From positions 120,858 through 184,857 of the forward strand of contig JAVKHO010000004.1 of NCBI GenBank assembly GCA_031459915.1: a stretch of DNA of 64,000 nt, read 5' to 3'. The stretch comes from Candidatus Tepidifontimicrobium thermophilum. Its GTDB lineage: Bacteria > Sysuimicrobiota > Sysuimicrobiia > Sysuimicrobiales > Sysuimicrobiaceae. Positions 43,547 through 46,955 of this stretch are shown here, piece by piece. Every line of letters begins with the position of its first letter. The stretch's first letter is position 1. Made by a program: the position numbers and the translations under genes. Under the pieces are notes generated by a model. It was not told where the DNA came from, did not search any database, and was given only the letters and a program-made list of their open reading frames with translations.

Positions 43547-45373
43547 CTACTCCACCGTCACGCTCTTCGCCAGGTTCCGGGGCTGGTCGATGTCGTGCCC
43601 TCTCTCTCGGGCCACCCAGTAGGCCAGCAGCTGCAGGGGGACCGCGGCCAGCACCGGGCTCAGCAGGTCGTCGGTGCGCGGGATCCGCAGGACCCGGTCC
43701 GCCAGCTTCCCGATCTCTGGGTCGTCCTCGTACGCCACGGCGACCACCCTGGCCCCCCGGGCCTTCACCTCCTGGAGCCCGGAGACGGTCTTCTCGTACA
43801 CGTGCGCCTGCGTCAGCACGACCACCACGGGAGTCCCCGGAGTCACCAGGGCCAGGGTGCCGTGTTTCAGCTCGCCCGCGGGCATGGCCTCCGAGTGCAC
43901 GTAGGAGATCTCCTTGAGCTTGAGGGAACCCTCCATGGCCACTGCGTAGTCCAGGCCGCGCCCGATGAAATACACGTGCTCGCTGTCCGCCACCTCCCGC
44001 GCCAGAGCCTCCACCGGCGCTGGATGGTTGAGGATCTCCTGGACCTTCCGCGGCAGCACCGCGAGTTCTTCCACCAGCTGCCGGGCCCGGTCAGCGCGCA
44101 GGTTCCCGCGGAGAGAGCCCAGGTACAGCATCAGAAGGACCTGCCCGACCAGCATGGTCAGGTAGGCCTTAGTGGAGGCCACCGCGATCTCGGGGCCCGC
44201 CCGTGTGTACAGGACGTCGTCCGCCTCGCGGCTCAGGGTGCTGCCCACCACGTTGGTCACGGCCAGCACCCGGGCACCCCGGGACCGGCACAGCCGGGCG
44301 GCGGCCAAGGTGTCCGCGGTCTCGCCGGACTGGCTGATGGCCACCACCAGGTCCCCGGCACGGACCAGGGGGTCCCGGTAGCGGAGCTCGTGCGCGTAGT
44401 CGGCCTCCGTGGGAAGGTGCAGGACCCGCTCGAACAGGTACCGGCCCACCAGCCCGGCGTGGTAAGCGGTCCCGCAACCGGTGATCCAGATCTTGTTCAG
44501 AGCCCGGGCAAAGGCGGCGTCGAGGTGGACGTCCTCCAGGACCACGGGCCCGTCGCCGTCCAGCCGGCCCATGAGAGTCTCCTGGAGCGCGCGCGGCTGC
44601 TCATAGATCTCCTTCAGCATGAAGTGCGGGAAGCCGCCGCGCTCTGCCTGCTCCGCGGTCCACGTGACGTGCATGCGGCTGCGCGAGACCGTTCCCCCCT
44701 CGAGGCTCTCCAGCTGCACCCCTTCCCGGGTCAGCACCACCAGCTCTCCGTCGTTCACCACCAGCACGTCGCGGGTGTACGGCAACAGGGCCGGGATGTC
44801 CGAGGCCAGCAGCATCTCCCCCTGCCCGAAGCCCACCACCAGGGGGCTGATCATGCGGACCGCGACGATCCGGTGGGGCTCCTGCGCACACAGGACCACG
44901 AGGGCGTACGCGCCGGAGGCGCGCCGCACAGCCCGCCGGGTGGCCTCCACCAGGTCTCCCCGGTACTCCTCCTCGATGAGGTGCGCCAGCAGCTCGGTGT
45001 CGGTGTCCGAGCTCAGACGGTGACCCCGGGAGGCGAGCTCCTCCCGGAGGGGCAGGAAGTTCTCGATGATCCCGTTGTGGATGACCACGAAGCGGCCCGA
45101 CTCGTCCGTGTGGGGGTGGGCGTTGGTGTCCGTGGGCTGGCCGTGGGTGGCCCAGCGGGTGTGGCCGATGCCCACGTTGCCCGGGACCGGGTCGCGCTCC
45201 AGGATCTCCCGCAGGCGCGACAGCTTTCCCGCCGCCTTGCGCACGTGCACGGTGCCGTCGTGGGCCACCGCCACACCCGCGGAGTCGTAGCCCCGGTACT
45301 CCAGCCGGCTCAGTCCGTCCAGCAGGACGGGGATCGCCGCCCGTTCTCCGATGTAGCCCATGATGCCGCACAT
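43547..45373 (-). CDS. glmS: Glutamine-fructose-6-phosphate aminotransferase
   Basis: MCGI, LEYRGYDSAG, HTRWATHG, SQSGETADT, VASTKAY, PRNLAKSVTVE. Confidence 0.98.
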   Translation of the reverse strand: MCGIMGYIGERAAIPVLLDGLSRLEYRGYDSAGVAVAHDGTVHVRKAAGKLSRLREILERDPVPGNVGIGHTRWATHGQPTDTNAHPHTDESGRFVVIHNGIIENFLPLREELASRGHRLSSDTDTELLAHLIEEEYRGDLVEATRRAVRRASGAYALVVLCAQEPHRIVAVRMISPLVVGFGQGEMLLASDIPALLPYTRDVLVVNDGELVVLTREGVQLESLEGGTVSRSRMHVTWTAEQAERGGFPHFMLKEIYEQPRALQETLMGRLDGDGPVVLEDVHLDAAFARALNKIWITGCGTAYHAGLVGRYLFERVLHLPTEADYAHELRYRDPLVRAGDLVVAISQSGETADTLAAARLCRSRGARVLAVTNVVGSTLSREADDVLYTRAGPEIAVASTKAYLTMLVGQVLLMLYLGSLRGNLRADRARQLVEELAVLPRKVQEILNHPAPVEALAREVADSEHVYFIGRGLDYAVAMEGSLKLKEISYVHSEAMPAGELKHGTLALVTPGTPVVVVLTQAHVYEKTVSGLQEVKARGARVVAVAYEDDPEIGKLADRVLRIPRTDDLLSPVLAAVPLQLLAYWVARERGHDIDQPRNLAKSVTVE

Positions 45374-45431
45374 AGACGCCTCCCGCCCCGAGACCGACGG
45401 CCGCCGGGGCAACCGGTCTCGTAGCCGCGGC

Positions 45432-46562
45432 CTACTGGCCGGCGGCTGCGGGCTCCGCCTCGCGGCTCACCACGAACTCCTTCTCCAGCGCCTCCAGACG
45501 CGCCACGATCCCTCCGTACTCCAGCTCCGACATGGGCAGCATGGCCGGCCCGAAGAATCCCTGCCGGCGCATCTCCAGGGCCTTGGCCGCCGCGCGGTCG
45601 CGCACGTGGGCCCAGAAGGGGTCCGCGAACAGGTCCGTCGGCTCGGTGAACTTCCCCTCGTGTACGGAGAAGGCGAGGCCCGAGACCATGGGCACGCAGA
45701 AGAAGGTGCTGGCAGGGGTGTTGATGGGCACCGGCATCAGCGGCAGGTTGTGGCTGCCGCGGGTGTCCCCGGCCACGAAGGGCACCACGGCGAAGGGTGG
45801 CCCGAACTCCTCCGTGGCCGGGAAGATCTTCTGCACCCGGACCACCGCCACGGGGTCGTCCTTGCCCACGTACCGGCCCGCGATGTTGCGCAGCCGGGTG
45901 GTGGACACCGCGGCCGCCTGCTCCTGCGGGTACTTCCGGGACCAGATGGACTCGATGACGTAGCGGTGGGTGTCCCGGAGCAGCGCCGCGATGTCGTACA
46001 GGCGCTCGGGCGCGTCCAGGGTGATGGTCCGGTCCCCCTCCGTGTAGTCCACGTCCATGATGCGGAACCGGAAGCCCTGGTGGAGGTCCGGGGACAGCAG
46101 CAGGCCGGAGGAGTACATGGGATCCGCGAAGGCGAGGTACAGGGGCAGGTTGAAGGCGCCGGGCTCGGTCTTGTCCGCGGCGAATACCACCACGGCTTCG
46201 TTGGGGCGCTCTTCGAACTCCATCTCCGCCGCGGCGGGCCCCAGGCCCCGTACGTTGCCCGAAAAGGCGTCCTTCAGCAAGTCCTGGCCCGCGCCGTACA
46301 GCCCCTGCCGTTTGGCCACCTCCGCGCCTGCCCGGAACGCCTCCCAGGCGAGGGCGTGCACGTCCGGATGTCCCACCCCGTGGTGGTGGGACAGGATCAG
46401 GCACACGTCATCCCCCGTGTGGGCCACGTAAGCGTCTACCAGCAGCTTGCCGCGCTCGGCAAACACACGCTCCCGCACCACTTCTAGGACCCGCTGGCTG
46501 GGCAGGGTGTGTCCGCCCACGCTGCCGATGTCGGCCTTGATCACGCTCAGGGTGGTGCGCAT
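45432..46562 (-). CDS. fbp: Fructose-1,6-bisphosphate aldolase/phosphatase (class V, archaeal-type)
   Basis: VIKADIGSVGGH, GDD, GLYGAGQDLLKDAFSGNVRGLGP, DKTEPGAFN, YVGKDDP, RGSH, LEY. Confidence 0.96.
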   Translation of the reverse strand: MRTTLSVIKADIGSVGGHTLPSQRVLEVVRERVFAERGKLLVDAYVAHTGDDVCLILSHHHGVGHPDVHALAWEAFRAGAEVAKRQGLYGAGQDLLKDAFSGNVRGLGPAAAEMEFEERPNEAVVVFAADKTEPGAFNLPLYLAFADPMYSSGLLLSPDLHQGFRFRIMDVDYTEGDRTITLDAPERLYDIAALLRDTHRYVIESIWSRKYPQEQAAAVSTTRLRNIAGRYVGKDDPVAVVRVQKIFPATEEFGPPFAVVPFVAGDTRGSHNLPLMPVPINTPASTFFCVPMVSGLAFSVHEGKFTEPTDLFADPFWAHVRDRAAAKALEMRRQGFFGPAMLPMSELEYGGIVARLEALEKEFVVSREAEPAAAGQ

Positions 46563-46699
46563 ACGCTCCCCTCCTTTCGCGCACACGGATTTCCTGTCAG
46601 CCCGCAAAAAGCGGGGCCGGGGGTCGGTTGACTTTCTCGTGGGACCCTCGCGCTCAGGTGGGACGCCCAGCGCGACGGTCAGCTCAGGACGGCGCCGGC

Positions 46700-46881
46700 C
46701 GGCAGCCTTTTGTCCCGGGGTCGCCCCCGGGCTTTGTCAGCTACCTTTTGCGCACCGGATGGGTTTCCGGAGGCCCGCCGGTGGGCCTGGGGTCACCCGC
46801 CGAGCAGGAAGCCAGAGCTTCCCGTCGAGATCCCCCGCCTCGTCAACCCGCAGCCCACACAGGCTGCGGGTCCTGGCGCTG
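46700..46881 (-). ncRNA. glmS ribozyme (GlcN6P-activated self-cleaving riboswitch)
   Basis: The minus strand reads A/GCGCCAGGAC-CCGCAGCC-loop-GGCTGCGG-GTTGACGAGG..ATCTCGA-hairpin-TCGGCGGGTG..ACAAAG-CCCGGGG-GCGA-CCCCGGG-ACAAA. The conserved core and the GNRA-capped P4.1 are present. Predicted cleavage is between 46880 and 46879. Confidence 0.9.
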
Positions 46882-46926
46882 CAACCCAACTGTTCCCCTC
46901 TCACCTCCCTGACAAGCCCTGCCTGT

Positions 46927-46955
46927 TGTGTACCAGACCCCGGGCTACCGCGCAA
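46927..46955 (-). promoter_or_regulatory. Candidate promoter for the ribozyme-fbp-glmS transcript
   Basis: TTGCGC-17 nt-TACACA with an extended TGn -10, about 45 nt upstream of the cleavage site. Confidence 0.45.

Follow-up and report, generated by a model that had tools for sequence, protein, structure and literature searches.

In the 64,000-nucleotide (nt) stretch of contig JAVKHO010000004.1 of Candidatus Tepidifontimicrobium thermophilum analyzed here ("the window"), a glmS ribozyme on the minus strand leads not glmS, the gene for glutamine-fructose-6-phosphate transaminase, but fbp, the gene for a class V fructose-1,6-bisphosphate (FBP) aldolase/phosphatase (FBPA/P), with glmS standing second. 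This arrangement is real, family-wide and derived, and it extends a known riboswitch to a gene of central carbon metabolism. From sequence comparison we consider it on balance probable that the ribozyme governs the fbp-glmS mRNA, so that cleavage triggered by glucosamine-6-phosphate (GlcN6P), followed by RNase J decay, would lower both enzymes.

The Rfam model RF00234 matches the window over its full length (model positions 1–167) with 46.5 bits against a gathering cut-off of 37 bits (E 1.2e-7), and it scores above that cut-off in all 12 genomes of the host family. Rfam and profile searches thus bear out the minus-strand glmS ribozyme upstream of fbp that a preliminary description of this DNA had reported, together with its coordinates for the ribozyme-fbp-glmS stretch; the "intact core" of that description holds for the full-length fold, but not in the sense of a fully canonical core, given C at 46829, G at 46796 and extra helices. 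The AG dinucleotide of the predicted cut site and the P2.2/P2.1/P2 double pseudoknot are present, with every cell of the 12-genome alignment paired (P2.2 60/60, P2.1 36/36, P2 48/48), as also in P4 (72/72) and P4.1 (84/84); pairing is 71/72 in P3, 54/59 in P3.1 and 112/120 in P1, the last with six two-sided changes. The P3/P3.1 pseudoknot and the P4 domain with its purine-rich internal loop and GNRA loop are likewise found. Every core helix is fully paired and without variation; two-sided changes occur in P1, P3.1 and P4 as well as in the inserted helix and the extra hairpin, although these covariation counts come from related and thus non-independent genomes. Invariant in 12/12 are G1, C2, G3, A27, C28, G32, U43–G45, G56 and G57, with G32 presumably belonging to the catalytic and cofactor-pocket residues. 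The non-cleaving mutant positions given in the accessible part of PMC7125110 (G1, C2, G3, A27, C28, G56, G57) are all wild type in the window. Judged by these patterns, the ribozyme fold is still under selection in the host family.

We take the Asp/His metal ligands, the Schiff-base Lys and the C-terminal Tyr to be the catalytic residues of FBPA/P, an enzyme through which flux runs one way. All of them align with 3R1M/1UMG in the window protein, which passes the NF041126 equivalog cut-off (528 against 520 bits), matches PF01950 and aligns end to end with the solved ST0318 (E 1e-94), including the GDD, GQD and YxGKDD motifs; by these matches the fbp product is a class V FBPA/P. Its likeness to ST0318 (PDB 3R1M/1UMG; 3T2B) therefore comprises full length, equivalog score and the metal-binding and Schiff-base motifs. 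The fbp ATG lies 128 nt past the Rfam end, about 140 nt past P4 (the distance first described) and 317 nt past G1, and glmS starts 58 nt past the fbp stop. Behind glmS, the Trm112p-like gene, acpS, nnr, alr and the pxpB-pxpC fusion follow with gaps of at most 40 nt, so the tight coupling claimed for this series, 58 bp spacing included, is confirmed. A scan of the minus strand from 43000 to 48000 returned no terminator-like or sigma70-like site, in line with the earlier "no evident terminator" between fbp and glmS, but the scan is weak at this G+C content because shuffles give only 1.0 and 0.2.

The Rfam model was run on 41 genomes, of which 29 matched, and a pattern search covered all 94 genomes of the phylum, from which 39 loci were fetched. 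In the host family, represented by three genera in our genome set, the number that PMC11604079 gives for Sysuimicrobiaceae, which we take to be the same family, the ribozyme is followed by fbp in 12/12 genomes across all three, and glmS comes next in 11, the twelfth contig ending within fbp; the fbp-glmS gap is 43–152 nt. The ribozyme is thus nowhere in this family directly in the glmS 5' untranslated region, and six other such exceptions are known from metagenome loci (see below). Outside the family, glmS is the first gene at 17/17 loci found with the Rfam model and at 36 of the 39 fetched pattern loci, two others lying at a contig edge and one being likely misbinned, which gives ribozyme-glmS at 53/53 readable loci. 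Left out are L165 and L168 (contig edges) and G045:C29 (L144), and pattern hits in G031, G039 and G060 were not fetched. L144 is 98.6% identical to the window and lies in a bin of another family that owns its own ribozyme-glmS, hence the likely misbinning; another bin, G075, holds two different ribozyme-glmS loci (C212 and C313), by duplication or contamination. Genome G023, marked as unpublished, supplies one of the 53 loci and also contributes to the counts over 66 loci, to the 18 fbp loci of the outgroup and to the tree; no conclusion hangs on it. The closest named fbp records belong to Ca. Sysuimicrobiota/CSP1-3 and bacterium HR32; six named records at 90–98% identity and one truncated contig share the ribozyme-fbp order.

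At 16 of 18 outgroup loci fbp adjoins cca and/or parA (both at 12), the remaining two (f4) being divergent fbp genes located elsewhere, and in the source genome an empty stretch of about 70 nt separates cca from parA. Because ribozyme-glmS is the general state, fbp usually stands beside cca/parA, and this pair adjoins in the source genome, the simplest reading of the sequences is that fbp moved from the cca/parA site into the glmS leader. A 50-protein tree puts the host-family FBPA/P in a clade with other members of the order and Thermus (99/95).

Some variation around these loci deserves mention. A phosphofructokinase (PFK) gene adjoins the parA-cca pair (G000:C17:24007-27800), the site of fbp in the sister families. 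The glmS behind fbp at L040 and L062 is 51% identical to the window glmS overall and about 90% over its first 59 residues, with 85–97% in the rest of the genus, and looks like an in-place replacement; G007 retains the ribozyme-fbp order although its glmS itself looks replaced. At L031, L032 and L033 (genus g2) a geranylgeranyl-reductase-like open reading frame (ORF) lies upstream instead of glmM/vanZ, and ribozyme-fbp-glmS is retained. Second fbp-like copies occur at G001:C8:156007-156801 and G002:C318:3828-4913 (one partial, one 78% identical), as paralogues or contamination.

Three metatranscriptome runs, chosen for this stretch, contain it: X1 and X2 from the same study and X6, as raw reads, from another; X3, X4 and X5 contained too little near-identical sequence for use, the analysis covering 3–5 in 100 of runs X4 to X6. 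Assembled contigs prove neither single transcripts nor their ends. In X1 one contig of depth 34 spans 46919–44172, i.e., leader, ribozyme, fbp and 1.2 kb of glmS, while the contig upstream of it (depth 6.6) reaches only to 46921 and does not overlap it; depth is 0–11 in neighboring regions, including the downstream genes at 38748..43506, against about 34 over fbp. Position 46919 is 7 nt past a TG-extended −10 box, and we infer that transcription starts near it. The putative promoter is conserved in position in eight genomes of the genus, with TG-TATAAT at the same place in G009, and lies below the threshold of the promoter scan. X2 has a contig that bridges fbp and glmS and another that begins at 46707, with 46708–46894 uncovered; the X6 reads are stranded for the minus strand and thin. 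Taken together, the RNA contigs are consistent with one ribozyme-fbp-glmS transcript.

The ribozyme core departs from consensus at two positions, C42 and G58 in place of A42 and A58, a combination shared by 65/66 ribozyme loci of the order; the only member with canonical A42/A58 is L019 (G017, family f7), whose P1 is very long and whose P2 carries a long insertion. The helix inserted at 46824–46805 is paired in 90/93 cells, with two-sided change in 6/8 pairs. C42 with G58 recurs in 2/99 metagenome loci and two Chloroflexota genomes, all ahead of glmS (among them L329 and L330 from two large Chloroflexota genomes and L215 from a metagenome contig). The accessible part of PMC7125110 reports rates of 6.3e-5 per s for A42C/A58G, 3.6e-4 for A42C, 4.1e-2 for A58G and 6.4e-2 for the consensus, in a construct with 9 nt between G32 and A42 and without tandem G-A; A42C in an 8-nt context is not among the supplement data accessible for that paper. 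Natural C42 copies have 8-nt spacing, G58 and a purine-rich neighbor. Since natural C42 recurs with G58 and 8-nt spacing, and the published construct is one nt longer in this strand, C42/G58 looks like a compensated natural subtype.

Upstream of the cut lies a Shine-Dalgarno (SD)-like motif without a start codon. GG[AG]GG[TG]G occurs within 60 nt before the cut at 64/66 loci of the order, in 52 cases between −27 and −31, compared with about 7/100 expected from genome background, 8/99 metagenome loci and 1/64 ribosome sites of the first gene; a start codon stands 4–13 nt behind the motif in 5/64 loci. In Bacilli, mRNA is stabilized by a strong SD that lies near its 5' end and has no start codon (PMC3997798, accessible part). 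The window motif resembles such STAB-SD elements (cryIIIA type) in that it strongly complements the anti-SD, lies near the presumed 5' end and lacks a start codon, and differs in sitting on the piece that predicted cleavage would remove. By this analogy, cleavage may have two effects, a newly exposed 5'-OH and loss of the SD shield of the intact 5' end. A candidate helix between leader and 3' domain is weak in the host family (5.46 against 4.76 ± 0.28 for shuffles, shuffle maximum 5.83), with a clear analogue in f2 and f5 and none in f4. In f2 and f5, leader positions −10 to −4 pair with a segment after P3 over 4–8 base pairs (GTGC with GCAC) with co-varying flanks, and the cognate helix scores above all 200 shuffles.

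The metabolic context was read from the source genome, which is 96% complete. It encodes RNase J (over cut-off) and an RNase E/G-family gene, NagA and a NagB-II-like protein below cut-off, as well as GlpX and a PFK closest to the pyrophosphate-dependent family. Class II FBP aldolase was found in 0/12 host-family genomes, nor was any other FBP aldolase found there; the single PF01791 match in the source genome reads by inspection as DeoC, and a PF00274 search was blank in host genomes and controls alike. With no other FBP aldolase found in the family, fbp would be metabolically central, and FBPA/P is, by gene content, probably the main route from trioses to fructose-6-phosphate (F6P) in the source genome. 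Growth of B. subtilis on gluconeogenic carbon lowers F6P about 16-fold and makes it limiting for GlmS (PMC6171935, accessible part), which gives a reason to raise fbp together with glmS; with amino sugars taken up, neither would be needed. GlmR (YvcK) of B. subtilis likewise links scarce F6P under gluconeogenesis to GlmS, but by protein-level activation; that the fbp move replaced GlmR is ruled out by YvcK in 40/41 genomes. We also rejected the idea that fbp was freed to move by a second FBP phosphatase, as GlpX occurs in only 6/12 family genomes, yet in 9/9 f4 genomes.

We propose that the ribozyme would act at the head of a shared fbp-glmS mRNA. With GlcN6P high, it would cut between 46880 and 46879, the cut mRNA would be degraded by RNase J and both enzymes would fall together; cleavage would also strip the start-less SD motif that may shield the intact 5' end. 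Scarcity of amino sugar would raise F6P supply and F6P use together, and plenty, for example N-acetylglucosamine entering via NagA, would turn both down. Cleavage followed by RNase J decay is the mechanism described for B. subtilis in the accessible parts of PMC3997798 and PMC10810187 (for the mechanism also PMC11602151). The two-step control put forward in the preliminary description is supported in part, namely by the arrangement, its family-wide conservation, its origin by relocation of fbp and RNA consistent with one transcript; the slow core variant, GlpX and PFK in the source genome and ribozymes that lead other genes elsewhere speak against it. A more far-reaching version, in which GlcN6P sets the level of the family's only FBP aldolase through a C42/G58 ribozyme that strips a 5' shield, with the fbp move selected for that, is a tentative proposal that we doubt more than we believe.

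Several observations weigh against control of fbp and glmS by cleavage, and they feed the alternatives. In the published construct of different spacing (PMC7125110, accessible part), A42C/A58G is about 1000-fold slower than the consensus and A42C alone about 180-fold, and X1 yielded a contig with no break at the cut site, i.e., uncut RNA was assembled; the C42/G58 ribozyme might accordingly be slow or have an altered ligand range, the operon being kept for co-expression and GlcN6P feedback being weak or different. We judge this unlikely, as the construct lacks the 8-nt spacing, G58 context and purine-rich neighbor of the natural copies, C42 keeps company with G58 in the order, in metagenomes and in Chloroflexota, always before glmS or fbp, and neither cut site nor periphery varies. 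Read ends do not accumulate at 46879, where raw-read depth is only 1–4. The X2 contig 46895–47123 (depth 9), whose end lies 15 nt short of the cut, extends across the putative start, which implies vanZ read-through or DNA in the sample. As X2 also covers fbp from 46707 on but not 46708–46894, a separate promoter could serve fbp from behind the ribozyme, or glmS from within the 58-nt gap, leaving the ribozyme without control of fbp; this is very improbable, for there is no promoter-like site and no conserved motif in the 130-nt spacer, X1 is continuous from 46919, and cleavage and trimming would explain the X2 gap just as well.

A further difficulty is the strong ribosome site of fbp (AAAGGAGGGG): initiating ribosomes can block RNase J1, as described for B. 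subtilis (PMC10810187, accessible part), and by analogy could do so here. The cut might then be normal with fbp and glmS largely escaping decay, or fbp, relocated by chance, might have come under a regulation that is merely tolerated. The 12 genomes are related and probably go back to a single event, so that an origin in one family offers no argument from repeated evolution; the host-family FBPA/P proteins do not form one clade (three changes in the 50-protein tree), which makes later in-place replacement or tree error possible; and GlpX and PFK appear to offer other FBP-to-F6P routes in the source genome, so that only the aldolase step would be unique to FBPA/P, GlpX being able to buffer the phosphatase step in those six of the 12 family genomes that have it. 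Even so, we hold this explanation to be improbable, since selection still maintains the ribozyme in the family, as it could only if the downstream genes were affected, and the order is kept across the three genera, even where glmS looks replaced (G007). Translation could also be switched, the 5' GGAGGTG holding CCCACCT until the cut frees CCCACCT to cover the fbp ribosome site, and both motifs do change together in one genus (GGAGGGG with CCCCCTT); yet the cognate duplex energies are no better than those of shuffles or family non-cognate pairs (z −1.3 to +1.4), the leader fold is not unusual (z −0.4) and families that lack the 3' motif still have the 5' one, and we give this switch hardly any credence. 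Control of the fbp-glmS mRNA by cleavage and RNase J decay thus stays our preferred reading; selection may have been for feedback on gluconeogenesis or for mere co-expression with glmS.

Compared with the B. subtilis glmS ribozyme (RF00234), the window shares the RNA family, cut-site motif and double pseudoknot, the upstream cdaA-cdaR-glmM block, RNase J and a glmS downstream on the same strand, but differs in having a central-carbon gene first and glmS second, and in C42/G58, the inserted helix, the extra hairpin after P3 and the start-less SD before the cut. We surveyed the first gene behind glmS ribozymes more widely, as the preliminary description had proposed, with a core-pattern scan of 2 of 64 metagenome collection parts (118 loci, 99 after deduplication). 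The first gene is glmS at 83 loci, nagB at three, a GlmU-like acetyltransferase gene followed by glmM at two and glmM at one, the other 10 being too short, chimeric-looking or false; the six non-glmS loci all pass the Rfam cut-off and all lead amino-sugar genes, and fbp is the first gene at 0/99. In 401 Chloroflexota genomes, 11/13 pattern matches lead glmS, one being false and one short; in 201 Deinococcota genomes none of 14 pattern matches precedes glmS, and the pattern misses Deinococcota ribozymes. At L206, L212 and L286 the ribozyme stands directly before nagB, whose enzyme normally degrades GlcN6P, which suggests NagB run in the synthetic direction; at L227, L234 and L255 it stands before a stand-alone GlmU-like acetyltransferase gene and glmM, or before glmM. 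First genes other than glmS are thus not unique to the host family, but fbp is seen as the first gene only there. These six are, like ours, true RF00234 ribozymes with a first gene that is not glmS; theirs encode amino-sugar enzymes, whereas the window's encodes the gluconeogenic FBPA/P upstream of the branch point.

According to McCown and co-workers, in 2011, all but two of 463 ribozymes reportedly lay in glmS mRNAs, and we know of no riboswitch control of FBPA/P. A search by title and abstract opening, to which subscription literature was mostly closed, returned no description of the ribozyme-fbp arrangement. The accessible parts of PMC5473149 and PMC10099748 present the ribozyme as regulating glmS.

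Farther along the window, a pair of MNT-HEPN type (nucleotidyltransferase and HEPN) lies at 37768–38705 on the plus strand, convergent on the pxpBC end. A cyclic di-GMP (c-di-GMP-I) riboswitch at 16563–16644, also on the plus strand (Rfam 66.1 against 65.9 bits), has an upstream TTGACA box and a T-rich hairpin end and is flanked by minus-strand genes, an ATP-dependent DNA ligase and an NDP-sugar (nucleoside diphosphate sugar) dehydrogenase-like ORF; it looks orphaned or antisense because the sole plus-strand ORF behind it has no Pfam match. Positions of all locus features are collected in Table 1.

Table 1. Features of the ribozyme-fbp-glmS locus and its surroundings (positions in the window).
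Feature	Position	Strand	Basis or remark
cdaA	50811-50008	minus	upstream of ribozyme
cdaR/YbbR	49997-48813	minus	upstream of ribozyme
glmM	about 48703-47399, start not fixed	minus	upstream of ribozyme
VanZ-like	47351-47049	minus	upstream of ribozyme
Putative promoter: -35 TTGCGC (46955-46950), 17-nt spacer, TG-extended -10 TACACA (46932-46927)	46927..46955	minus	inferred
Putative transcription start	46919..46920	minus	X1 contig end
Start-less SD-like GGAGGTG, 5' of cut	46902..46908	minus	complementary to 16S 3' end of source genome
glmS ribozyme	46691..46891	minus	RF00234; P1, P2, P2.1, P2.2, P3, P3.1, P4, P4.1; helix pairing in 12 family genomes
Predicted cut site	between 46880 (A-1) and 46879 (G1)	minus	AG dinucleotide
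Candidate leader-to-3'-domain helix: TGGGTT (46888-46883) with loop AACCCA (46765-46760)	46760..46888	minus	pairing scores
Core variant: C at 46829 (consensus A42), G at 46796 (consensus A58)	46796..46829	minus	beside tandem G-A juxtapositions in P2
Hairpin 3' of ribozyme carrying CCCACCT (46662-46656)	46649..46674	minus	sequence, family comparison
fbp ribosome-binding site AGGAGGGG	46568..46575	minus	sequence
fbp, class V FBPA/P, 376 aa	45432..46562	minus	NF041126, PF01950
glmS, glutamine-fructose-6-phosphate transaminase, 608 aa	43547..45373	minus	TIGR01135, 787 bits
Trm112p-like	43506-43318	minus	profile searches
acpS	43317-42925	minus	profile searches
nnr	42944-41349	minus	profile searches
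alr	41368-40268	minus	profile searches
pxpB-pxpC fusion	40265-38748	minus	profile searches

Textbooks use the glmS ribozyme as the model of end-product feedback on a single enzyme. Should the ribozyme govern FBPA/P here, a cell-wall metabolite would control the flow of carbon before it reaches the branch point, and the relocation of fbp, with its donor site empty, would show a riboswitch regulon growing by gene movement. The start-less SD motif suggests that part of glmS control may lie 5' of the cut. C42/G58 is predicted by the published mutant map to be nearly dead, yet it is fixed across the order and found in another phylum, and it thus offers a direct test of how far mutant maps carry over to natural RNAs.

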